Under the pieces are notes generated by a model that searched no databases, was not told the DNA's origin, and saw only the letters and a list, made by a program, of their open reading frames with translations. Below, one piece after another: positions 26,208-38,054 of a DNA stretch of 64,000 nt. This DNA is from an uncultured Planctomycetota bacterium. GTDB taxonomy: Bacteria; Planctomycetota; Planctomycetia; Isosphaerales; Isosphaeraceae. How positions within the stretch are numbered: the stretch's first letter is position 1; each line of letters opens with the position of its first letter. The position numbers were made by a program, and so were the translations under genes. Location: assembly GCA_963823665.1 (NCBI GenBank), contig CAWGMQ010000005.1:1120001-1184000 (forward strand). The letters are read 5' to 3'.

Positions 26208-29200
26208 CTACATCTGTTTCTCCGGCTGCAATGCACTCCCGGCCAGAAGCGCGTCGGCCTCTTTCAGGAGCCTTTGCGCTTCTTGATTGCTCGCCCAGTT
26301 CGGCTTCTGCGACGTCTCGCGGAGCTGGGTCAGACTCGCCCGCGCCTGGTCGGGCTCACCGATCTGGAACCGGGTCATGGCCAGGAAGGCCAGGTCGGCT
26401 GGAACCGAACCTCCCTCGGCCTCCCGGTTGAGCGTTTCCGCGCGCGTCAGCGTGGTCAGGGCCTCCTGGTACTTCCCCAGGCGGTACTGGGCCATCCCGA
26501 GGGTGGTGTGGTAGGAGCCCACGAACGGCATGAGACGGCAAGCGATTTCCGCGCGCTTTACTGCCAGCCCGTACGCGGAGGGTTCCGCGCCCGGCCGACC
26601 GGCCACGGCTCGGCTGGCCCGGTCGAGGTGCAACGGCAATTCCACGAATCGCTCCGCCAGGGCCAGCGCTTCTTGGCGTACAGGCTCGCTAAGCGCGGGA
26701 TTGGCGCGGAGGGACGCGAGGACCTCAGACCGGAACAGAGGCTTGGCGAAGAGAGACCTCACCTCCCGCTCGGCCTCCCGACGCACCCGGTTTCGCCAGA
26801 CCGGCTCGACCAGGGTGAGGGCTCGCTGACGCACGGCATCGCTGATGGCGCAATCTCTGACCCGGGCCGAGACCGCCTCCGGGGTCGGCGATTGGGTGAA
26901 CAGGAACTTGACCAGGCTTGCCGCCTGCCGCTCGTCGCCAAGTTCCGCGTCGAGGGGGATTCCTTCCCAGATCGTCACGACTCTGTCCCCGCTGGCCGCA
27001 AGGCGCCGGCCGCCGCGACCGAACGCTATACGGGGAACCTGGGCAGGCGCCCCGCGCAGGGTAAGGATTTCCTGTCCGGTGAGCGCGTCCCAGAGCTTCA
27101 CTTCACTATAGAGACGCTCGCCTCCCTTGCTCGTCCCGCCCGCGGCGGTGACAAGCCGCCGGCCGTCGGGACTGTACATCAACCAATGGACGGCGCTCGT
27201 ACCTCCGCGAAGAGTAAGGCACGTCTCTCCCGTGACCGGGTCCCAGACCTTGACCGACCCGTCTTGACTCGCGGCGGCGAGCCGCTTGCCGTCGGGACTG
27301 TACACGATGCGCGTGACAACTCCCTCGAAGCTGGGCAGCGTGAGGACTTCCTGTCCCGTGGCCGCCTTCCAGACGCGCACGGTTCCACTCGCACTCGTGG
27401 CCAGGCGCTCGCCATCGGGGCTAAAGGTCACGCTGGCGAGCCCCGGGTCGCTGTCGCGCTCGGTTCGCTCGGGCAGCGTCAAGACCATCTGCCCTTTGCT
27501 CAGGTCCCAGATCATGGCCTCGCCTGAGACGGGTCGTCCTCTCCGCGCCGATGAGCGACTGATCGAAGCGAGCCGCTGGCCGTCGGAGCTAAAGGCCACA
27601 GCCGAGATGGAGGCGGTGTGTCCGCGCAAACAGAGGATTTCAGAGCCGTTCGTCGCATCCCAGACGCGCACGGTCCGATCCACTCCGACAGAAGCGAGCC
27701 GCCCGCCGTCGGGACTGTACGCCACGCCCAAAACGGAATCGAAATGCCCGATCATTGTGAAGACCTCCACCCCCGTTGTGGTGTCCAGGACGTGCAAGAA
27801 TGGACCGCTGGCGATTGCCAACGTTCGACCGTCCGTGGCAAACGCCACATCAGCTACGTTGCCGAAGTTCCCGCTCAAGGCGACGGCTTCCGCAGCCGCC
27901 GTTGCATCCCAGAGCTTCACGGTGCCGTCCCCGCCCCCGGAGGCCAGTCGCCATCCGTCCGGGCTGAACGCCACACTGGCGACGGTGTCGGTGTGGCCAT
28001 GCAAGACCAGGGCCGCATCCCCGGTGGTCACGTCCCAGACCTGCACGATATTATTGCCGGCCGCGGCCGCAAGCCGCCCGCCGTCTGGGCTGAATGCCAG
28101 ACCGCCGATTCCCTGGTTATTGTGAAACGCCTGAATCTCGCTTCCCGTGTCGGCGTCCCAGACCTTGGCTCCATCGTTGCCGCCGGAACCGAGCCGTCGG
28201 CCGTCAGCGCTGTATGCCAGGCAATTGAGCGTGTTCGGTTGCTTGCTCAAGTGAATGATCTCTTTTCCGGTCGTGGGGTCGCAGACGCGGACCGTACGAC
28301 CATCGATGAACGCAAGCTGGCCCTGCCGCTTTGCCCCGGCAGGACGAAAGGCGAGAGCGCTCATGGTACTTCCCCATTGCCCGGAATCGGTCCCGGGTAT
28401 GCGCACGAGTTGCCTGCCATCGACCGCGTCCCAAACCTTTACCTCGCCGGGCAAAATCCCTCCTCCCGGACTGACGCCTACGGAAAAGGAGGCGAGCATC
28501 CGGCCGTCCGGGCTGAACGCCAGGCCTCGCACGGGGGCGGCGTGCGCGGGCAGGGTAGACAGCTCACGTCCGTCTGCCGGGTCCCAGATCTTGATTTCGC
28601 CCGGAGTGTGCACACCTCCATTTGCCGAGGCCAGCCGCCGGCCGTCGGGACTGAATGCCACGCAGGATACGAGGTCCTTGTGCCCGGTCAGGCAAAAGCG
28701 CTCCCGGCCCGTCGCGACATCCCAGACTTTGACTTCTCCACGTTGGCCAAAATTGCCGCTGGCGGAAGCGAGCAGCTTGCCGTCAGGAGAGAACGCCACG
28801 CAGCGCACGGGCGCGGAGTGGCCGGGCAAGGTGCTCATGTCGAGGCGGCACAGGCGCTTCAGGTGGTACCACTCGAAGCTTCGCAGGTCCGGCTGTTCGG
28901 GTGAGCGCGGCTCGAGGACGTCGAGCCGTTTTTCGAGAGAAGCGATCTCGCCCTGTTCCCAGTCTTTCTGGGCAAGGGTGCTTTCTGCGGCGTACCAGCG
29001 GAGGTCGCTCCGCGCTTTCTCCGCGCGTGCGATGCGGGCGCTTGCGAGTGCGTCTGCCGCGCGGTTGCTCGCCTGGATCGCGTAATACGAAGTGCTGGCC
29101 ATGCCGAGCAAGAGCGAGGCCGCCACCGCGCCGAGCAAAAGCGCAACTACCGGGTTGCGCCGGCACCATCGCCATGCGCGCTCCGGGCCGGAGATGGGCC

Positions 29201-30401
29201 GGGCGACGATCGGTAGGCCGGCGCGGAAGCGGCGGAGGTCGTCGGCCATCGCCGCGACGTCGGGGTAGCGCCGATCGGGATCTTTTTGGAGCGCCTTGAG
29301 GCAGATCGTCTCGAGGTCGCCCGGCATGCGGGGGAGGAGCTGCGACGGAGCAACGGGCTCGGCGGTGCGGATCAGGTCGAGGGTGTCGATGATGGACGAC
29401 CCGCGAAACGGCGGTCGTCCGGTGAGCATCTCGTAGAGGGTGGCACCCAGCGCATACTGGTCGGCGGCGGGGCCGGCCCTCTCGGCACCAGTGGTCTGTT
29501 CGGGGGCCATGTAGCTCGGCGAGCCGAGGATCCACCCGGTGCCGGTCTGGCCGGAGTCGGCCTCCATCCGCTTGACCAGGCCAAAGTCGGCGATCTTCGG
29601 CGTCCCGTCGCCGGCCAGGAGGACGTTCGCCGGCTTGATATCGCGGTGGACGATCCCGCGGCGGTGGGCCACGCCCATGGCCCGGGCCAGCGTCTCGACG
29701 ATCTGCGCGGCGGCGTCAGTGGGCTGCGGTTTGCCGGCGATCCGCTCGGCCAGGCTGCCGCCCTCGAGGAACTCGAGCGAAAAGTAGGGCAGGCCGTCGC
29801 GCTCGCCGATCTCGAAGATCTTGACGATGTTGGGGTGGTCGATGGCGGCGACCGCGCGGGCCTCTGCCTCGAACCGGGCCAGGTCGTCCGGTTGTGCACC
29901 CGCGCCGGCCTTGATCATCTTCAGCGCGACCAGGCGGTCGAGCCGGAGGTGCCGCGCCTTGTAGACGACCCCCATACCGCCGGTGCCCAGTACGCCCAGG
30001 ACGTCGTAGCCTGCGATCCGGGGCAGTTCGCGGCGCTCGCGGCCGCCGGACAATCGGGACGCCAATTCCGTATTCGCGGCCGCAAGACCAGGAGAGTGCA
30101 CGAAGCGGTCGGTGGCATCGGGGTCGTAGTCAGCCGTCGCGTCACGGCCCGGGCCGGTCGTGGCGTCGGCATCCGCGTCGGATGTGGACTCACGTTCGAC
30201 GTGGGTGCTCGCGCCACGGTCGAGGAACGTTGTTGGGTCGCCCTCGGAAACTATGGGCGCGTCACGATCCAAGGGTGCGCTCGCGGCGCGTTCGATATGT
30301 GTGGGAGCCTCACGGTCGAACTTCGTGGGGACGTCGCGCTCGCGGTCCTCCGCATTCGGATTCGAGGCCTCCTCTGGACGACCTGCCATGAGTGTTCCCA
30401 C
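26208..30401 (-). CDS. Ser/Thr protein kinase with TM segment, about 14 WD40 repeats and C-terminal TPR
   Basis: GTGGMG, VALK, HRDIKPAN, DFG and YMAPE motifs; repeated FSPDG...VWD units. Confidence 0.95.
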   Translation of the reverse strand: MGTLMAGRPEEASNPNAEDRERDVPTKFDREAPTHIERAASAPLDRDAPIVSEGDPTTFLDRGASTHVERESTSDADADATTGPGRDATADYDPDATDRFVHSPGLAAANTELASRLSGGRERRELPRIAGYDVLGVLGTGGMGVVYKARHLRLDRLVALKMIKAGAGAQPDDLARFEAEARAVAAIDHPNIVKIFEIGERDGLPYFSLEFLEGGSLAERIAGKPQPTDAAAQIVETLARAMGVAHRRGIVHRDIKPANVLLAGDGTPKIADFGLVKRMEADSGQTGTGWILGSPSYMAPEQTTGAERAGPAADQYALGATLYEMLTGRPPFRGSSIIDTLDLIRTAEPVAPSQLLPRMPGDLETICLKALQKDPDRRYPDVAAMADDLRRFRAGLPIVARPISGPERAWRWCRRNPVVALLLGAVAASLLLGMASTSYYAIQASNRAADALASARIARAEKARSDLRWYAAESTLAQKDWEQGEIASLEKRLDVLEPRSPEQPDLRSFEWYHLKRLCRLDMSTLPGHSAPVRCVAFSPDGKLLASASGNFGQRGEVKVWDVATGRERFCLTGHKDLVSCVAFSPDGRRLASANGGVHTPGEIKIWDPADGRELSTLPAHAAPVRGLAFSPDGRMLASFSVGVSPGGGILPGEVKVWDAVDGRQLVRIPGTDSGQWGSTMSALAFRPAGAKRQGQLAFIDGRTVRVCDPTTGKEIIHLSKQPNTLNCLAYSADGRRLGSGGNDGAKVWDADTGSEIQAFHNNQGIGGLAFSPDGGRLAAAAGNNIVQVWDVTTGDAALVLHGHTDTVASVAFSPDGWRLASGGGDGTVKLWDATAAAEAVALSGNFGNVADVAFATDGRTLAIASGPFLHVLDTTTGVEVFTMIGHFDSVLGVAYSPDGGRLASVGVDRTVRVWDATNGSEILCLRGHTASISAVAFSSDGQRLASISRSSARRGRPVSGEAMIWDLSKGQMVLTLPERTERDSDPGLASVTFSPDGERLATSASGTVRVWKAATGQEVLTLPSFEGVVTRIVYSPDGKRLAAASQDGSVKVWDPVTGETCLTLRGGTSAVHWLMYSPDGRRLVTAAGGTSKGGERLYSEVKLWDALTGQEILTLRGAPAQVPRIAFGRGGRRLAASGDRVVTIWEGIPLDAELGDERQAASLVKFLFTQSPTPEAVSARVRDCAISDAVRQRALTLVEPVWRNRVRREAEREVRSLFAKPLFRSEVLASLRANPALSEPVRQEALALAERFVELPLHLDRASRAVAGRPGAEPSAYGLAVKRAEIACRLMPFVGSYHTTLGMAQYRLGKYQEALTTLTRAETLNREAEGGSVPADLAFLAMTRFQIGEPDQARASLTQLRETSQKPNWASNQEAQRLLKEADALLAGSALQPEKQM

Positions 30402-30467
30402 CTACCACGACCGACCTGGCACGGTTGCGCTAGCGGGTCGGAGCGTGATTCGACGAGGAGCACATTT

Positions 30468-30713
30468 TTATCCGTTCCCCATCGCACAACTACAAACGCC
30501 CGTGTCCGCGTTAACTCCGCATGTATCATTCAGGCTACAGCACGTGGCAACACCGTTCTCGCAAACGCAAGACGTGGGCGTGCTTCCCGAACAGTTGACG
30601 CTGACGCCTCTGGCAGGTTGGATGCCGGCGATCGAGTTGCCGCGGGAGGGCCCGCGCGTTGGCCAGGAAACACTCCCACGGAGAACCGCGGGTGCTTGTA
30701 CGGGAAGCTTCAT
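30468..30713 (-). CDS. Cys-rich precursor peptide 3 (81 aa; PatE-like leader, 8-Cys core)
   Basis: AGGAG RBS; MKLPVQAPAVLR...GIQPA followed by RGVSVNCSGSTPTSCVCENGVATCCSLNDTCGVNADTGVCSCAMGNG. Confidence 0.85.
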   Translation of the reverse strand: MKLPVQAPAVLRGSVSWPTRGPSRGNSIAGIQPARGVSVNCSGSTPTSCVCENGVATCCSLNDTCGVNADTGVCSCAMGNG

Positions 30714-30762
30714 GTCCGGTCTCCTTTCAAATGGACCCCTGGAAAAAACGTGCGCGGATGGC

Positions 30763-31011
30763 TTATGGATTTTTGCAGACACACCTGCCACCGGGAGCTT
30801 CAGAAACACCGTTCGAGTCGCAGCATTGGCATGCACCAGAAGTGCAGCGCCACACGTCTAGTGGAGAGGTGCACTTTCGATTGTTTGGGTCACCTTGACA
30901 GATGTTAATATCGTGTCGAAACGACGCAGAGATGCCATGGCCGGAAGAACGGCTGGCCGGCCAGAAGTTTCCTGTACGAACCACGGCTCCGGTTTGCAAG
31001 GGAAGCTTCAT
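30763..31011 (-). CDS. Cys-rich precursor peptide 2 (82 aa)
   Basis: AGGAG RBS; MKLPLQTGAVVR...GISAS followed by FRHDINICQGDPNNRKCTSPLDVWRCTSGACQCCDSNGVSEAPGGRCVCKNP. Confidence 0.88.
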   Translation of the reverse strand: MKLPLQTGAVVRTGNFWPASRSSGHGISASFRHDINICQGDPNNRKCTSPLDVWRCTSGACQCCDSNGVSEAPGGRCVCKNP

Positions 31012-31060
31012 GTCCGGTCTCCTTTCAAATGGACCCTTGGAAAAACGGTGCGCGGATGGC

Positions 31061-31309
31061 CTATACATTGCAGACACACCTGCCACCGGCTTCCTGATGA
31101 ACACCCTTCAGGCCGCCGCAGCATTGGCACGCACCAGAAAGGCAGCTTTGCACCTGCAGGGGAGGGGTGCACTTTCGATTGCTGATGTCTCCTCCACAGA
31201 TGTTAACGTCGGTTCGAAATGACGCGGAGACGCCTTGGGCGGAAGAACGGCGGGCCGGCCAGGAGTTTCCTGCACGAAGGACGGCTGCGGTTTGCAAGGG
31301 AAGCTTCAT
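31061..31309 (-). CDS. Cys-rich precursor peptide 1 (82 aa)
   Basis: AAGGAG RBS; MKLPLQTAAVLR...GVSAS followed by FRTDVNICGGDISNRKCTPPLQVQSCLSGACQCCGGLKGVHQEAGGRCVCNV. Confidence 0.88.
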   Translation of the reverse strand: MKLPLQTAAVLRAGNSWPARRSSAQGVSASFRTDVNICGGDISNRKCTPPLQVQSCLSGACQCCGGLKGVHQEAGGRCVCNV

Positions 31310-31355
31310 GTCCAGTCTCCTTGTAGGTGCCCCGGCGCGGTGGGCGGCGACAAAT

Positions 31356-33217
31356 TCAGCGGGTGAACCATGAGCGCGTCGGGCCGACGGTCACCGGCAC
31401 GGTGTCGCTCACGTCCACCGTAAACCGATAGACCCGGCGCACCGTCTGCACCTGCCGCTCGGGGTAGAAGAAATACACCTCGACATCCCAGCAGTCCGAG
31501 CCAGGCCGGCAGATCGGGCTGCGAACCACGTTGATGCTTTCCAATTCCATCGTTTCCTTGAGGGCGGACTCGTAGACCTTGTCGAATGCAAACGCATTCG
31601 TCGCCGCGAAATTGATCGCCCGGTCCTGCGGGGCCAGGCCCAGGTTGCGCAGCCCGTGGTAAACGCGGTCGAGGAAGTTGCGGACGCCCGCCGTGCGCTG
31701 GGCGTGCGCATCCTGCTCGTGCTACGGAGCCTCCGCCGCGGGCGCGGGGCCGGCCACCGCGTCCGCCAGGGCCGCAGTCGTCCAGCTAAACATGCCACGC
31801 AATTCCGGCACGATGACGGCAACCACCTGCCCCGACAGTAGCGTGGCCTTACCGGCGACGACGCCCGCGATCGATACGCGCTCGACCCCCTCGTCCAGTC
31901 GCTCGCGCAGGAACCGCCGCAGTTCCTTGTACGCATCGGCGGCGAACGGACCTTGCGGCCGGACCGCGTAAATCGCAGTGCCGTCGAGGGCGAGGGTCCA
32001 TTCCACGGCGGCGGCGTTCCAGGGGTGCTCGTCGAGATGGGCCAGCATCCGCCGGGCGTCGAACGCCTGGACGCGTTCAGCACTACTCTTGCCGGCGACG
32101 CCGGCGATCGTCTGGGCGAGGCCGTCGAGGCGGGCTTCGCTAACCAGGTCGTACCCGATCTGGCCGAGAGCATAGACGAGTTGCGGCGCCCCGGTCTGAC
32201 AACCGCAAGCGGACGGTTGGACTGCCGCGGGGCGAACCGCGTTTTCGGTCGGGGGCAGTGGGATCGGCGAGGCCGCGGCCAGGTTGTCTTCGTTTGGCAC
32301 CGCGTCGCTTGGCGGGGCGGTGGAGTCGGACATCGTCAGCATACTCCGGGTGAGGATTGTTACGGCTCCATTGACGTTCAACCGTCCAGCCAGGAGACGG
32401 TGGCAATCCGTTTCAAGCTCCTGAGCACATCCCAGGGCACTGCGCAATAATGCATCCCTGACGAGCGGCGGGCTCGGCTGCCGGCCGCGTTTTCGCTGCA
32501 AACTCAAAAGCAGGGCCGCGACTCCCGAAACCACTGCCGTCGCGTAACTCGTGCCGATCCCGCGCCTGTCCCACCACCGGGTTGCGCGCCAAGTATATCC
32601 ACGCCGGGCGCCAAAATCCCCTGAATTCCGTAGAGTCCGCCCCAATTGCTGGAACTGACGGGTTCCCCCTGCGCATCCATCGCGCCGGCCGCCAGCACCG
32701 AGTCGAGGGCGGCGGGGACGTGGAGGCACGCGCAACCGTCGTTGCCCGCGGCGGCGACGATCAGAACGCCGCGCCGGGCGCAATCGCGGACCACGTCGGC
32801 CAGCAGCGGGTGGGCAGTTCCCGAAGGGGAAAACTGTCCGCCGCTGATGTTGACGACATGGGCGCCCTGCTGTACCGCCTGGGTAATGGCCCGTGCGAGA
32901 TCGAGTTGCGAACAGAGCTGAATCGACTGCTCACCGACGGACTGAAAAATCGGCACGAGAACGCCTCGGCAGAGCGGCGCGAGGCCCGGCACGAGCCCGC
33001 CGTGCTGGCCGAAGATCACGCTGGCGATGTGCGTACCGTGCCGGCTGGCGGGCCCGAGGTCGGCCGTCCCCGGCACCAGGGTTTCCACCTGCGTGAGGTT
33101 CGCAGCTTTCAAACTCGGGTGGGAGAGCTCAACCGGGCCGTCCAGGACCGCGATGCAGACCGCGGGATCGCCGAGGGTCTCGGCCCAGAGTTCTCGGATT
33201 CCGGAGAGGAGGCCCAT
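31356..33217 (-). CDS. PatA/PatG-family cyanobactin maturation protease (S8 domain + PatG C-terminal domains); frameshift near 32565 and in-frame TAG at 31722-31724
   Basis: Triad IAVLDG / HGTHIAS / GTSYAT; SQLDLARAI, AAAGNDGC and LVYALGQIGYD motifs; beyond the TAG the frame continues NFLDRVYHGLRNLG, DRAINFAATNAF, SPICRPGSDCWDV and YRFTVDVSD. Confidence 0.9.
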
Positions 33218-33365
33218 GACAATACAACCGCGAGCTGCCCACGAACAGGAACCTGTAGAGTGGCCGCACAGCTTGTGAGCCCACCCTCGTGAGTGTCCCT
33301 ACGGTAAGCCACCCGCCGCGCGATAACAAATGAAAAAGTGGTGACGGATCAATTTCCGAGCCCGG

Positions 33366-36300
33366 TTATTCACGCCGCACCGCCCGCGTGACTCCAGGCA
33401 GACTCGGGGCCAGACGGAAGCCGTAGAAGTTCGAGCGGTCCGACGGGACGTCCGTGTGGCGGATCGCCGACCGGCAATACGCCGCGACGGTGCGCCAACC
33501 GCCGCCACGGCTCACGCGGCGCGCGCCCTCATCGGCGCCTCGCGGATCGGTGATCGCTTCGACACCATAGTCCCCGACCCAGTCGTGGCTCCACTCAAAC
33601 AGATTCCCGTGCAGATCAAACAACCCACGAACGCTCGGACGCAATTCCCGTGGCGGATGGGCGTGCTTGCCGCTGTTCTCCGCGAACCAGCCAAATCGTC
33701 CCAGCAGGCTCACCTCGCCGCCAAAGCCGTAAGGCGTCCGCGCTCCAGCACGGCTCGCCACCTCCCACTCCGATTCCGTCGGCAATCGAAATCCTCGTCG
33801 ATCCAGCTCCAGTGGCCAGTTCCGCGGGGCCCAGTTCGCCTCGAGATTCGGTTCGCGTGGATACCTCGCCTTGTCCAGGGTCTCGGGGGCCGGATACGAC
33901 TGGTCTCTTTCCGGCAAGCCCGACTGCTGGCCCAGCCACCGGCAGAAGCCCACCGCGTCGTACCAATCCGTACCGAACCCGGCATCCGCGGGTCTTGCGT
34001 CGTATTCCTGCATCAGTTCCGCGTATCGTGGCGAAAAAGCTCTCAGCTCCAGAAGGGTGATCTCACGATCCAGCAGCGCAAACGGGCGCGTCAGCGTGAC
34101 GCTGTGCCGGACTTCGTTTTTTTGCCGGTCCGGTTCGTCATTGACCGAGCCGACGTTGGAGGCGCCCGCTGGAATTACGATCAACGTATAGTAAAACGTC
34201 TCTTTCACCAGCTCCGTTTCCGGCCTCGGTGGCGCTGCGGGCGTTACCGTGATCGCCAGCGTGAACCACTCCCGGTCAGGCGCATACGGCACCACCGTGC
34301 GATCCACCTGACGCACGACCTCCGCCTGCCTCCATTGCCGCAGCAGCCAACCCGCCGCGCCGTGGACTCCTGAACTCGGGTCATGGCGGTACCAGCCGGC
34401 CAGTTGCTCAAGAAGCGCTACCCGATGCGATTCGGGAATCTCCTCGAGTGAAAACTCCCCCAGTGCCAGCAGCAGGGCATACCGAGTGTTTTTTGGATAA
34501 CGATCTTTCGGAGCGATGCTGACCCGTTGCAGACAGTCGAGCAGCGCATCCACGGCGACTCCACGGGGGCGGCAGCGGAAGATGAATTGCGTGAGCGCCT
34601 CCGGATCGTCGGTCATGTCAAACACCGGCAGCACCTTCTCGCGCTCGCCCAGCCGCAGCAAGGTGACTGCGGCGTTCGCACGACGCTGGCCAAAGGGTAT
34701 GCGCTCTACGGAGCCCAGTTCCACCGATGGCGGCGTGGCGGCGATCCTGGCGAGATCCTCGAACGTGGCAGGCGCGGGGCCCGCGGCCACGATCGGGTAG
34801 AGCACGGCGAATTGCTCCGGCGTGGCGACGGCGAGTAGCTGGGACAACTTCGGGATATCGCCCGCGGCGTAATCTGCGAACGCGTTGGCGGCGGAGACCT
34901 GCTGAGCGACGGTCGCCTTGGCATCGGCGAAGATCCGCTCCAGATCCAGGAGCAGTCGCGCGCGAATCGGACGCAGCGCGTCGCGCAGCAGCGGCTGGGA
35001 CTCGGGATTGGACAAGACCAGTTGCTCGGCCACGAACTTCAAGTTCTGCTCGCTCCACGAGGCCGCCTCGGAATCGGGAACGTAATCCGAGAGCGCCACC
35101 GCGGCGCGGAACCGGCGAAAGGCCTCGGCTTTCTCGTCCCGCAGGATGGCCCGGAGTTTTTCCGTGAGCTCACCCGCGTAGGGACGCAATTGCGCACGAA
35201 TCGGGCCGATGTAAACGACCTTGTTGGTGAGCAATTCTTCAAGCAGTGGTTCGACGAGCGCCCGGTCGCGGGAAACCAGCGCGAGGCGAGCATGCAATTG
35301 CGCGCGCTTCTCGTCGACCGTTCTTGCATTGGCGGCAAGCAGCGGCAACAGATAGGTCGCGGCAACCTCGGGGTTCGCATCGAGTTCTTTGACAATGGCC
35401 GGCAACTGATTGGGTTCCGCACTCACCAGGCGTCCCACCAGCCCTTCGATGCGGGTCGCTTCCTGCTCTCTGGCAACTTGGGTGCGAACCACTACTCCGA
35501 TGGAAATCAATGCGACGAGACCAGTCATAGCGAGCGCAGATCGGAGACTGTGCAACCGGGTCGCCTTGGACATCATCACCCGCTGCGGTGAGGTCCACTT
35601 TTTCGGATCTGTCAGCGTGCGGATGCTGAGCCATTCCCAGACTGTCGGTAGATGGCGGTTCTCTGGTTTGGCGTTCCACAAGCCTGAGCGTTCCGCCAGT
35701 TTCAGCTCCGCGCGGCCCCGGCGAGTTTCCTTCTGCTTGCGCGTCAGCCATTCTCGCAACGAGTGAACCAGATAGTCGTGAGTGAGCTGGTAGTATTTCT
35801 GCCCTGGCCTGGTCTGCGGCGCGGAATCGCCGTTCGCCTCTTTCCCTTCCGGGTCGGTCGGCGTGATCAGGCGGATTTCGCTGTCGAGAATTCGGATCAG
35901 GTCGTCGAAGTCGTTGGGGCGGCTACCATAGCCGGAGGCGTCCAGCAATTCTTGGCGGGACCTCATCTGTCCCTTGATGTCAGTGCCGCTTTCGGGAAGC
36001 AAGGCTTTGAGCACCGCTTGGGCGGCGGTCTGGTGCAGTCTACGCTCGGGGGGCGCGGTCGAGGCGCTGAATGTTTCCTCGAGGAATGTGACACCCACGC
36101 CCCTCGTGCCGCCAACTTCTTTGAGCGTGGAGGGAGTCCACGGTTTGCCTTTTATCATCTCGGCGTAGAGCGCCAACCTGACGGAAATGACCTTCCCTTC
36201 TTCCGCCAGTCCACTCACCGATTCCTTCAGGAATTCGTTCTGCTCGCTCGAAGTATCCGACGCGTTCTCTGGGAGCTTGCCGAATGCCCGGCCGAATGCC

Positions 36301-38054
36301 GCCAGCACCTTTCGGGCGTGGTCAAGGTCGAAGAGATCGACGGCCGCAGAGTTCTGCCCTTCGAGGAGACAGATCTCCAGACCCCTCGTGAATCGCGTGG
36401 CGGCCATCCAAAAATCATCGCGTACCATCACGATCGCCTGGAGATGCTCGCCATCGCACTGACGAAGCGCGGCGACCAGTTCCGTGTTCTCCTCACGTCG
36501 CCTGGCAAAGAGCCATTGCTCGAACTGGTCCAGGACCAGCAGCACCTTGCGCTCGGATGGCAACACGTGACCTCGCCGCACGCTTGCCAGCGAATCAACC
36601 AGCCCCGATCCTCTCGGCAGTAAAGGACAAACCTTGCGCAGACCCTTGAGCAATCGAGCTTCGGTGTCTTCTGCGTTCGCCTCGATGTAAGCCGCATGGA
36701 CGTGCTTGCCGAGCCGGGGCAAGAGTCCCGCCTTGACGAGCGATGACTTGCCGCAGCCCGAGGGACCATAGATCAGCCCGACCTTGAAGGTCAGGTCGGG
36801 ATCGATCTGCTCGATCTTTCGCTTCCAGAATTGGATGCTGTCTGGCAGTCCGTCCCGGTCCCGCGGTCCGGGAAGCAATTCCACGAAGAAGTCGGCATCA
36901 TGCTCATCGAACGATCGCAGGCCTCTTGGGACGATCTTGATCGGCCACTGGTCGGAGGCCGATTGCTTGTCGGAGGCCGATTGCTTGGAGGTCGGTGGGA
37001 CCGGTGTCACCACATCGGTTGAACCGGGTGGCGGGCTGACCGGAGCGAACGAGGCGGCAGGCGCGACCACTCCCGTGACGGTCGGGAGAAAGGCCCGCAG
37101 ATCCTCAGCCATGTCACGCCCGGTCGTGTACCGGTCCGCCGCTCGCTTGCTCATCGCCTTCAGGCAGATTCGTTCCAGTTCCTTGGGAATCGTGTCGTCG
37201 ACCTGGCGCGGAGGGCGGGCTTCGGTCGCGGCGATGAGATCCAGCAGTTCGTTGCGCGCTTCGTCTTTGTCTTGAGCTTTGGCTATGAACGGTCGTCGCC
37301 CGGTCAAGAGCTCGTAGAACACCACGCCCAGGCTGAAGATGTCGGACCGCCCATCAACACGATGCCCCTCGCCACGAGCCTGCTCGGGACTCATGTACGC
37401 AGGCGTTCCAGCCAGCCCACCACCGATCCCGAAGTCCTCGTCCGTAAGCGCGAGACCGAAGTCGGCGACGAACGCCTTCCCTGAGCCATCGATCAGAATA
37501 TTGCCGGGCTTGACGTCCCGGTGGACCAGGCCGTGAGTATGAGCGTGATGAAGGGCTTCGGCGACAGTCGCCACCATTGCCGCCGACGCGTGAAAACTGG
37601 GGCGCGCTTCCTTGATCCTGGCGGCAAGGTCGCTACCTTCAATGAACTTGGACACCACGAAACAGGGTCCGCCCTCCATGCGACCCACGTCATGCACCGG
37701 CACGATATGGGGATGGTCCAGCCTGGCGAGAATTCGGGCTTCGACCAGAAACGCTTCGGCATCCTCCGCGCGCGTGATACGCTCCGCGTTTGGCACCTTG
37801 ACGGCGACCGGGCGATTCAGATCATCGTCGTGTGCAAGATACACCGTCCCGAACCCGCCCTGACCCAGCCGCTGGATGACGCGGTAGCGCCCGATCTTGG
37901 AGGGATCGCCTTCCCTGGAGCCACCCGAGCCAGGCGCGGGCAGTTGCGAGCCGGCCGTTTCCGCGACGCTCCTTGTCTCATCCGAGGACCGACTCGCCGC
38001 GGCACCCGGCGATTGAGATGCTCCCGGTTCGGGCGTGCCCTTCGTCTCATCCAT
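33366..38054 (-). CDS. Ser/Thr kinase + STAND-like NTPase + FGE-sulfatase domain protein
   Basis: GQGGFG, HRDVKPGN and DFG (kinase); GPSGCGKSS, LDQFEQ and LTHDYL (NTPase); FRLPTESEWE and GLFDLHGNLFEW (FGE). Confidence 0.93.
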   Translation of the reverse strand: MDETKGTPEPGASQSPGAAASRSSDETRSVAETAGSQLPAPGSGGSREGDPSKIGRYRVIQRLGQGGFGTVYLAHDDDLNRPVAVKVPNAERITRAEDAEAFLVEARILARLDHPHIVPVHDVGRMEGGPCFVVSKFIEGSDLAARIKEARPSFHASAAMVATVAEALHHAHTHGLVHRDVKPGNILIDGSGKAFVADFGLALTDEDFGIGGGLAGTPAYMSPEQARGEGHRVDGRSDIFSLGVVFYELLTGRRPFIAKAQDKDEARNELLDLIAATEARPPRQVDDTIPKELERICLKAMSKRAADRYTTGRDMAEDLRAFLPTVTGVVAPAASFAPVSPPPGSTDVVTPVPPTSKQSASDKQSASDQWPIKIVPRGLRSFDEHDADFFVELLPGPRDRDGLPDSIQFWKRKIEQIDPDLTFKVGLIYGPSGCGKSSLVKAGLLPRLGKHVHAAYIEANAEDTEARLLKGLRKVCPLLPRGSGLVDSLASVRRGHVLPSERKVLLVLDQFEQWLFARRREENTELVAALRQCDGEHLQAIVMVRDDFWMAATRFTRGLEICLLEGQNSAAVDLFDLDHARKVLAAFGRAFGKLPENASDTSSEQNEFLKESVSGLAEEGKVISVRLALYAEMIKGKPWTPSTLKEVGGTRGVGVTFLEETFSASTAPPERRLHQTAAQAVLKALLPESGTDIKGQMRSRQELLDASGYGSRPNDFDDLIRILDSEIRLITPTDPEGKEANGDSAPQTRPGQKYYQLTHDYLVHSLREWLTRKQKETRRGRAELKLAERSGLWNAKPENRHLPTVWEWLSIRTLTDPKKWTSPQRVMMSKATRLHSLRSALAMTGLVALISIGVVVRTQVAREQEATRIEGLVGRLVSAEPNQLPAIVKELDANPEVAATYLLPLLAANARTVDEKRAQLHARLALVSRDRALVEPLLEELLTNKVVYIGPIRAQLRPYAGELTEKLRAILRDEKAEAFRRFRAAVALSDYVPDSEAASWSEQNLKFVAEQLVLSNPESQPLLRDALRPIRARLLLDLERIFADAKATVAQQVSAANAFADYAAGDIPKLSQLLAVATPEQFAVLYPIVAAGPAPATFEDLARIAATPPSVELGSVERIPFGQRRANAAVTLLRLGEREKVLPVFDMTDDPEALTQFIFRCRPRGVAVDALLDCLQRVSIAPKDRYPKNTRYALLLALGEFSLEEIPESHRVALLEQLAGWYRHDPSSGVHGAAGWLLRQWRQAEVVRQVDRTVVPYAPDREWFTLAITVTPAAPPRPETELVKETFYYTLIVIPAGASNVGSVNDEPDRQKNEVRHSVTLTRPFALLDREITLLELRAFSPRYAELMQEYDARPADAGFGTDWYDAVGFCRWLGQQSGLPERDQSYPAPETLDKARYPREPNLEANWAPRNWPLELDRRGFRLPTESEWEVASRAGARTPYGFGGEVSLLGRFGWFAENSGKHAHPPRELRPSVRGLFDLHGNLFEWSHDWVGDYGVEAITDPRGADEGARRVSRGGGWRTVAAYCRSAIRHTDVPSDRSNFYGFRLAPSLPGVTRAVRRE

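Follow-up and report, generated by a model that had tools for sequence, protein, structure and literature searches.

In the cyanobactin pathways, which are the closest described systems to the locus presented here, PatA cuts after the sequence GLEAS, as given in the available part of PMC4282754, and the protease domains of both PatA and PatG are active without the C-terminal domain of unknown function (DUF), according to the accessible portion of PMC4259220. PatB and PatC belong to the same pathways; in the available parts of PMC4663559, PMC2854353 and PMC4259220 they are conserved, non-essential in E. coli and without an established function. The locus comes from an uncultured soil bacterium of the Isosphaeraceae (Planctomycetota). 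It lies in a window of 64,000 nucleotides, the whole stretch of DNA that was analysed (assembly GCA_963823665.1, contig CAWGMQ010000005.1, positions 1,120,001 to 1,184,000), and consists of a PatA/PatG-family protease gene followed by three small genes for Cys-rich peptides. We think, with a probability of roughly 0.65, that these genes form a peptide-maturation module in two parts, with its origin in the machinery of cyanobactins, in which a PatA-type protease releases Cys-rich mini-proteins from the adjacent precursors.

In the mechanism that we propose, a cytoplasmic PatA-type subtilisin, formed by an S8 domain and the cyanobactin C-terminal DUF, would act on the products of the three precursor genes placed directly downstream. 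Each precursor comprises a 12-residue tag (M-K-L-P-x-Q-x-x-A-V-x-R) of the kind with which PatB begins and which PatE leaders contain, then a disordered spacer closing in a PatA-type site (G-[VI]-x-[AP]-[SA]), and a core of 47-52 residues with a fixed framework of eight Cys. The protease most likely binds this site in its cleft, with V/I at P4, A/P at P2 and S/A at P1. A cut after the site would yield linear Cys-rich mini-proteins, with no later heterocyclisation, prenylation or macrocyclisation.

Gene anatomy and family membership are directly supported. The protease gene is read in three pieces (Table 1) that together carry the Pfam domains Peptidase_S8, PatG_D and PatG_C. The catalytic Asp (VLDG), the His (HGTH) and the oxyanion Asn (AAGN) are all in piece 1, the catalytic Ser (GTSYAT) is in piece 2, i.e., past the frameshift, and PatG_C is found past the in-frame TAG. 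The curated cut-off of TIGR03895, 421 bits, is set for the whole protein; each piece scores below it alone and the three scores sum to 542. A first, sequence-only reading of this DNA had proposed an S8 protease with PatG-type C-terminal domains, which these matches bear out. It had also spoken of a "repaired protease": the gene stands, whereas the two lesions behind that expression, a −1 frameshift and an in-frame TAG, had been left unstated.

The same reading had described three co-oriented genes of 81-82 codons, each led by a ribosome-binding site (RBS), with a shared leader and exactly eight Cys. All of this is found where it had been placed, except that the implied start of the third gene was one codon too early. 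The sequence AAGGAG stands 7 nt upstream of the ATG of each gene. The leaders of the three products begin with M-K-L-P-[LV]-Q-x-x-A-V-x-R, and their G[VI]x[AP][SA] sites fall at residues 26-34. Precursors 1 and 2, which we call type A, share 67% identity; precursor 3, of type B, has the core motifs CxCxNGxATCC and TGxCxC. The two inter-gene spacers closely repeat one another, and the array therefore arose by tandem duplication. A promoter and terminator scan of 30200-33500 gave counts near the shuffle expectation.

Table 1. Coordinates of the protease gene, its lesions and the precursor genes in the window, followed by the cyanobactin cluster of a related genome (G120)
Feature	Position	Strand	Description
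PatA/PatG-family S8 protease gene, whole	33217..31356	−	ATG at 33217, TGA at 31358..31356; read in three pieces
Protease piece 1	32567..33217	−	Start codon and S8 up to ..PGGGT; Peptidase_S8 E 2.8e-18; TIGR03895 219.5 bits, profile positions 1-157
Frameshift site, one base missing	32565..32566	−	Alignment of close kin and Logan contig of run X4
Protease piece 2 (other frame)	31725..32564	−	End of S8, linker and PatG_D; PatG_D E 1.6e-11; TIGR03895 226.4 bits
In-frame TAG, after the PatG_D part and before PatG_C	31722..31724	−	CAG (Gln) in three kin
Protease piece 3 (same frame as piece 2)	31356..31721	−	PatG_C, then TGA; PatG_C E 4.7e-21; TIGR03895 96.4 bits, profile positions 544-606
Precursor 1, type A, 82 residues	31309..31061	−	Leader 1-30 ends in GVSAS; putative core 31219..31064, 52 residues, 8 Cys; RBS AAGGAG 31322..31317
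Precursor 2, type A paralogue, 82 residues	31011..30763	−	Leader ends in GISAS; putative core 30921..30766, 8 Cys; RBS 31024..31019
Precursor 3, type B, 81 residues	30713..30468	−	Leader 1-34 ends in GIQPA; putative core 30611..30471, 47 residues, 8 Cys; RBS 30726..30721
G120 cluster	L062/L037		Ser/Thr kinase, PatF-like prenyltransferase, isopentenyl pyrophosphate isomerase, PatA split by ISAs1 transposase, PatB
G120 cluster, continued	L062/L037		PatG-side protease, open reading frame (ORF) ending in PatC motif, three tandem FAGDDAE precursors

For assigning the protease to one of the two cyanobactin types, the copy of a genome of the same genus (G029) was compared with solved structures. It scores 328 bits with PagA and 303 bits with PatA (4h6w, 4h6v) over the whole S8 domain, the range being 298-328 with 3zxx included. 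With the PatG/PagG macrocyclases (4h6x, 4aks, 4akt) the scores are 151-157 bits and the match begins at residue 46; the DUF of the G029 protease matches that of PatG (4uvq) with 75 bits. A quick maximum-likelihood tree was built from 69 S8 domains after dropping five rows (two duplicates and three shorter than 255 residues). It holds 18 proteases of the family Isosphaeraceae and that of G276, a planctomycete outside this family, with G029 standing for the broken copy of the window. The PatA/PatG split receives a Shimodaira-Hasegawa-like approximate likelihood ratio (SH-aLRT) of 99, and the 19 module proteases form one group (SH-aLRT 87), placed on the PatA side next to PatA of cyanobacteria and actinobacteria. 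As far as sequence comparison can tell, the protease is thus of the PatA type and not of the macrocyclase type, in agreement with the sequence-only reading.

That reading had also taken the protease to be stand-alone, with no YcaO, PatF or macrocyclase, and this now holds for the whole genome (16.5 Mb, 12 contigs, 91.9% complete), in which a single TIGR03895 locus is found. YcaO (PF02624) gives no match there. The PatF-type prenyltransferase (TIGR04445) gives none either; its positive control stayed silent in 14 control genomes, though the family was found in L037. No second PatA/G locus (TIGR03895) is present in the genome, and hence no PatG-type macrocyclase was found. A canonical-type cyanobactin cluster does occur in a metagenome-assembled genome of the same family (G120; L062:5794-6600 and L037:7118-19556; Table 1), and the raw material for the module is thus present in the lineage. 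An Atlas feature search gave best scores of 0.76-0.77, of which 0.76 was to a DUF5837 cyanobactin-precursor cluster and is to be taken as a lead only.

The pairing of protease and peptides is not particular to this window. TIGR03895 is found at E<=1e-30 in 26 of 121 Isosphaeraceae genomes (25 of 120 without that of the window), and 17 of these are above the cut-off. Twenty-eight protease loci were examined: the one in the window, another 25 on fetched stretches and two on short contigs. At 22 of them a same-strand, RBS-led small ORF with an M-[RK]-[LM]-P start lies ~30-100 nt past the protease stop; 20 of these ORFs are Cys-rich and two are true PatB (TIGR04220, 91 and 94 bits). Most Cys-rich peptides of the family have 56-70 residues, six Cys and the leader M-R-L-P-x-L-S-x-x-V-x-R-R, and among the 28 loci the eight-Cys peptides of the window type are limited to the three nearest genomes. 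In the phylum outside the family the protease appears in one of 400 sampled genomes, G276, which is complete and in a single contig. At its locus (L110:7541-11000) the protease is intact, with an open frame of 802 residues containing S8, PatG_D and PatG_C. It is followed by three tandem Cys-rich peptides that have the same tag and show GIVPSA, GVAPQS and GLSPSG before their cores; the first of them has an identical protein in NCBI, annotated as hypothetical, from a named, cultured planctomycete. Co-occurrence of such leaders with PatA-like proteases in other genomes, on the absence of which the sequence-only reading had said that its proposal would fall, is therefore a direct observation (22 of 28 family loci plus G276).

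Relatives of the peptides are also found in public protein sets. In a search of 5.8 billion proteins the window type is represented by 37 clusters (E<=0.01), all of them unnamed or hypothetical and without a Pfam domain, and the six-Cys type by 51 representative clusters at E<=0.001. A metagenome scan with the type-B profile confirmed three of 72 pattern hits, on contigs of 1.3-3.1 kb that are too short to show the protease. Chance reading frames in GC-rich DNA might be invoked for the three small ORFs, given that the window has ~63% G+C and many spurious ORFs. This is hardly credible in view of the RBS before each of them, the Cys framework kept by the 37 homologous clusters, the place after the protease conserved across two families, and the search of the 16.5 Mb own genome with the family profile, which matched just these three ORFs. 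As side observations, two short soil contigs (L107:39-678 and L108:3-676) carry a type-A gene and then a type-B gene, in the same order as the window and G046, and some relatives of the six-Cys type (P0078, P0079 and P0080) contain 12-13 Cys, which looks like a fusion of two cores to a single leader.

The leaders were compared with PatB and with E-peptides, the PatE-type precursors, whose sequences were fetched from 40 loci, mostly cyanobacterial cyanobactin clusters, with the PatB of the family as bait. Cyanobacterial PatB starts at residue 1 with M-[RK]-L-P-[KLN]-[QL]-x-x-P-V-K-R-P. E-peptides have the same module a few residues in (..L-P-Q-Q-G-Q-P-V-V-R.. or ..R-P-I-Q-T-A-P-V-Q-R..), the sites GVDAS, GVGAS or GLAAS before their cassettes, and AYDG or FAGDDAE after them. 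In hhalign the six-Cys leaders match PatB with a probability of 82% (E 1e-5) and the type-B leaders with 70% (E 4e-5), versus 2.6% (E 0.018) and 19% (E 1.3e-3), respectively, for the E-peptides. PatB and E-peptides match each other with 62% (E 7.7e-5), and type-B and six-Cys leaders, over the whole leader, with 92% (E 7e-7). The likeness to PatB spans the first 17-23 columns of the profile; for the window peptides it is confined to the N-terminal 12-23 columns. The tag and the gene position are those of PatB, and the layout of tag, spacer, protease site and core is that of an E-peptide. The sequence-only reading had likened the leaders to cyanobactin PatE; this likeness is real but the weaker of the two, since the pre-core site is PatE-like and the first 12 residues are nearer to PatB. 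Its further claim that they end in a PatA-type site agrees with the cut of PatA after GLEAS and with the GVDAS and GVGAS of E-peptides, and the absence of heterocyclase site and follower is confirmed, the cores running to the stop with no AYDG or FAGDDAE. As a side observation on PatB, its C-terminal 5-10 residues are hypervariable, with W, G and C in abundance (loci L064-L097, PatB at ~10001 in most; alignments A9 and A10).

This resemblance raises the question of whether the small proteins might be PatB-like accessory partners with a docking, regulatory or inhibitory function, in which the tag and position of PatB were kept and its body was swapped, instead of substrates. The true PatB (91-94 bits) in the same position at two family loci would agree with this, as would the leader profiles nearer to PatB (70-82%) than to PatE (3-19%) and the weak match of two of 26 peptides to TIGR04220 positions 1-12 (12 bits, E 0.12). 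Moreover, one relative matches Pfam WAP (E 0.0043), and small disulfide-rich proteins are often protease inhibitors. However, the fetched PatB sequences are without G[VLI]x[AP]S, whereas the Cys-rich peptides have the site at a fixed place before the core, and the PatB body (..HGANYND..) is wholly absent from them. Tandem arrays of one to three diverging copies, in which the leader is conserved and the loops vary, are the pattern of precursors. The segment that occupies the cleft in the structure model described below belongs to the flexible spacer, precedes the first Cys by 6-7 residues and is no disulfide-braced loop. We consider an accessory role very unlikely for these reasons, and think that the peptides are probably substrates.

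The pre-core region provides the first line of evidence for cleavage. Of the 56 distinct six-Cys relatives compared, 46 show the pattern x-[VIL]-x-[PA]-x a short way ahead of their first Cys, and P2 is Pro in 36. In 500 shuffles the mean was 16.6 and the maximum 27; the sequences are related, so no probability is attached to this comparison. Some relatives have exactly GVEPS or GIEPS, and the consensus of recognition sequence II (RSII) was reportedly given by Sardar et al. in 2015 as G(L/V)E(A/P)S. Pairwise identity among 28 type-B relatives is 70% in the leader and 50% in the core, or 39% when Cys are excluded, while exactly eight core Cys are kept in 27 of them and the remaining one has nine; motifs such as CxCxNGxATCC are retained.

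A structure model of the complex gives the second line. Residues 1-490 of the G029 protease (13-row alignment, without PatG_C) were modelled with the type-B peptide of the same genome (32-row alignment). The score was 0.64 (runs of 0.64, 0.62 and 0.81), the best of three controls gave 0.00, and the pLDDT (predicted local distance difference test) of the partner was 48-58. The mark used is reached by 116 of 157 solved complexes and by two of 215 mismatched pairs, counts that hold only roughly for our own alignments. Peptide residues 28-43 occupy the protease cleft in the model, in which residue 34, the last of GIQPS, contacts Ser225 (the GTS serine), 158-160 and 127, and residue 31 (Ile) contacts 104-108 and 128-129. 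The model supports binding, and from motif likeness and model together we infer cleavage and its position. The register of the model predicts that precursor 3 is cut behind Ala34, and alignment transfers this prediction to Ser30 in precursors 1 and 2.

What the released cores would look like can be approached by prediction. AlphaFold 2 models of precursor 1 show leader residues 1-35 with pLDDT <50 and a core of four strands with pLDDT 73-82; the core of precursor 3 likewise has four strands (pLDDT 73-77). Fold searches with both core models gave no assignment: the best Foldseek E values were 2.1-3.1, the matches being disulfide-rich modules of various kinds (follistatin-like, HER2 furin-like, granulin, hirudin), and a VIA-align comparison with 48,161 chains reached a Z of 2.3 at best, which does not make the fold new. 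A phmmer search of precursor 1 against PDB sequences returned no match at E<=10. Exactly six Cys are present in 44 of 56 six-Cys relatives, with the spacing C-x3-6-C-x5-9-C-x3-5-C-x1-2-C-x4-10-C, which we take to fit the knottin consensus. Disulfides are favoured by the compact models and by Cys counts that are even and fixed, and by inference the window cores would carry four of them in a defensin- or knottin-like manner.

Several observations weigh against the reading of this locus as a working protease with its substrates. Six of the 28 protease loci are without a small ORF of this kind, and Pfam and NCBIfam scans of the three peptides gave no match even at E<=10. In the complex model the N-terminal tag lies outside the confident interface and the modelled chain lacks PatG_C; the pass could, besides, be owed to general knowledge of subtilisin-substrate geometry. 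The ratio of non-synonymous to synonymous substitution rates (dN/dS) of the peptides, calculated from few sites, is 0.56-1.32 for the core and 0.33-1.06 for the leader, and such high values fit diversifying selection and relaxed constraint equally. A signal peptide is absent from protease and peptides alike, and neither an exporter nor a thiol oxidoreductase was found within ~15 kb of the locus. A search for RNA data sets containing the stretch returned none. Finally, the protease gene is damaged, as treated below: all four assemblies of the window-type clade carry protease lesions, with three indels and an in-frame TGA in G045 and further single-base indels in each of G029 and G046, and a contig of run X1 (31703-31880, 0 differences), a run that may be the source sample of the window, likewise has the TAG.

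The missing signal peptide and nearby exporter would suit trimmed products that stay in the cytoplasm as thiolate metal-binding, metallothionein-like peptides instead of secreted disulfide mini-proteins. The CxC and CC motifs of the cores point in the same direction, as does a cyanobactin linked to copper in the available part of PMC13266932. Against this stand the even and fixed Cys counts (eight in 27 of 28 type-B and six in 44 of 56 six-Cys relatives) and the metal-free models, which give compact beta domains with pLDDT 73-82, as well as the agreement of the six-Cys spacing with the knottin consensus. We regard metal-binding as quite unlikely and keep disulfide-bonded cores as the preferred products.

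The lesions of the protease were examined in an alignment with three close kin (G029, of the same genus, G046 and G045; 89-91% DNA identity). In the frameshift column an extra base is present in G029, and G046, G045 and the window are without it. An independent Logan contig from run X4, a soil metagenome of a different study (297 nt, depth 2.69), is otherwise identical over 32539-32834 and has one extra base behind 32565; restoring this base gives a frame with ..GGGTARGIGTSYATAVVSG.., the reading also found in PatA. A one-base gap that is common to three assemblies but contradicted by outside reads makes a systematic, long-read type of assembly error likely, and we think that the frameshift at 32566/32565 is probably such an error. 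As a separate observation, the gap at 32565/32566 has the signature of a context-dependent assembly error, which may break other genes in these large genomes.

The TAG requires a different treatment. It would delete the last 121 residues, half of the DUF, and past it the frame stays open to the TGA at 31358..31356. Compared with the three kin, the protease has a dN/dS of 0.24-0.28 overall and of 0.10-0.14 in the 121 codons beyond the TAG; from the latter values the truncation is either recent, if real, or an error. This copy of the protease may be weakened or recently inactivated. The stronger version, in which the module here is a recently inactivated relic with a protease pseudogene and peptides that are no longer matured, concerns the state of this copy and not the nature of the module. 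It can point to the TAG where three kin show CAG, seen again in the X1 Logan contig, to the lesions in the other three assemblies of the clade, and to peptide dN/dS values near 1 for several pairs. Opposed to it are the contradiction of the frameshift by an independent contig, the low protease dN/dS both overall and downstream of the TAG, and the three peptide ORFs, which are open and have RBS and eight Cys intact. Furthermore, single-base indels common to several assemblies resemble systematic long-read error, and a truncated enzyme might still cut, since in both PatA and PatG the protease domain works without the DUF (available part of PMC4259220). We judge a relic unlikely, though with a real share of the probability, and return to the module as the subject of what follows.

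Other genes surround the pair. At 20 of 25 family loci the peptide gene has beside it a Ser/Thr-kinase-WD40 gene (window 26208-30401, reverse strand; L038:10403-14194, reverse strand), which is convergent there and co-oriented in the window. The kinase gene was considered as a part of the module and rejected: it is not found at G276 and the window has four kinase genes, and therefore its presence is treated as probable lineage synteny. Directly upstream of the protease, at 33366-38054 on the reverse strand, lies a gene for a 1562-residue fusion of a Ser/Thr kinase, an nSTAND1 NTPase and a C-terminal FGE-sulfatase-like part. The neighbours at G276 are unrelated, with a weak MvdD-type ATP-grasp match (E 8e-6) ~1 kb further on the other strand.

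A literature search on cyanobactins or PatA in Planctomycetota, or with Cys-rich or knottin peptides, found no description of the module, most subscription journals being outside its reach; the available parts of PMC12639078, PMC8868522 and PMC7750434 contain nothing relevant to it. The sequence-only reading had not recognised the arrangement as a described class, and none of the publications found speaks otherwise; the arrangement is not confined to this organism. We would tentatively go further, with the odds somewhat against us, and propose that PatA-type proteases with Cys-rich precursors constitute an undescribed class of leader-guided, disulfide-rich mini-proteins, a cyanobactin offshoot that keeps only leader removal, and that the 12-residue tag, which these peptides have in common with PatB and PatE, serves the entire superfamily as a docking signal.

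In our opinion, such a class would bear on two old questions, the role of PatB and the purpose of the conserved start of the PatE leader. If the tag is a common docking signal, PatB would be a tag-bearing client or decoy of PatA and PatG and not an enzyme; PatB itself might be a tagged client of the proteases. Cyanobactin enzymes are a workhorse of peptide engineering, and a PatA-only branch that frees Cys-rich domains of 45-55 residues would widen their substrate range, besides adding a bacterial source of knottin-like scaffolds.

Of the features of a RiPP in the broad sense, a conserved leader with a variable core and an adjacent maturation enzyme are observed, and action of this enzyme on the precursor is modelled. 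Three known systems serve for comparison. With knottin and conopeptide-like precursors the module shares, as a functional analogy, a conserved pro-region ahead of a core that varies around an even, fixed set of Cys; it differs in being bacterial, with a cytoplasmic protease, no signal peptide, no fold match and, in the window, cores of eight Cys, the inhibitor cystine knot being defined by six Cys paired I-IV, II-V and III-VI. With PatB/AcyB/McaB (TIGR04220) it shares the gene position directly after patA and the start M-[RK]-L-P-x-[QL]-x-x-x-V-x-R at residue 1. The PatB body (..HGANYNDP..) is, however, missing from the window peptides, PatB is without the RSII-like site and the Cys-rich domain that these have, and TIGR04220 gives no hit to them at E<=10 (family threshold 55 bits).

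The cyanobactin pathways (pat, tru, pag and acy) are the closest of the three. They consist of the N-terminal protease PatA, the macrocyclase PatG and a PatE-type precursor, in which RSII precedes and RSIII follows each short core cassette, with PatD and PatF as optional members, besides PatB and PatC. They have in common with the module the protease family and the domain order S8, PatG_D and PatG_C, a window-type S8 near PatA/PagA, tandem precursor genes, and precursors with an N-terminal tag of LPxQxxxVxR type; the G[VI]x[AP][SA] site of the window resembles RSII. In contrast, the module is without PatG-type macrocyclase, YcaO, PatF and PatC in its own genome or window, and its precursors are without the heterocyclase site and the C-terminal follower (AYDG, FAGDDAE) of E-peptides. 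Cyanobactin cassettes have 6-20 residues, whereas the window cores have 47-52 with eight Cys and the predicted product is linear, and the Pfam and NCBIfam cyanobactin precursor models show no match to the window peptides at E<=10. Judged by its genes, the module appears to resemble the first proteolytic step of cyanobactin biosynthesis, while the other defining features of the pathway fail.

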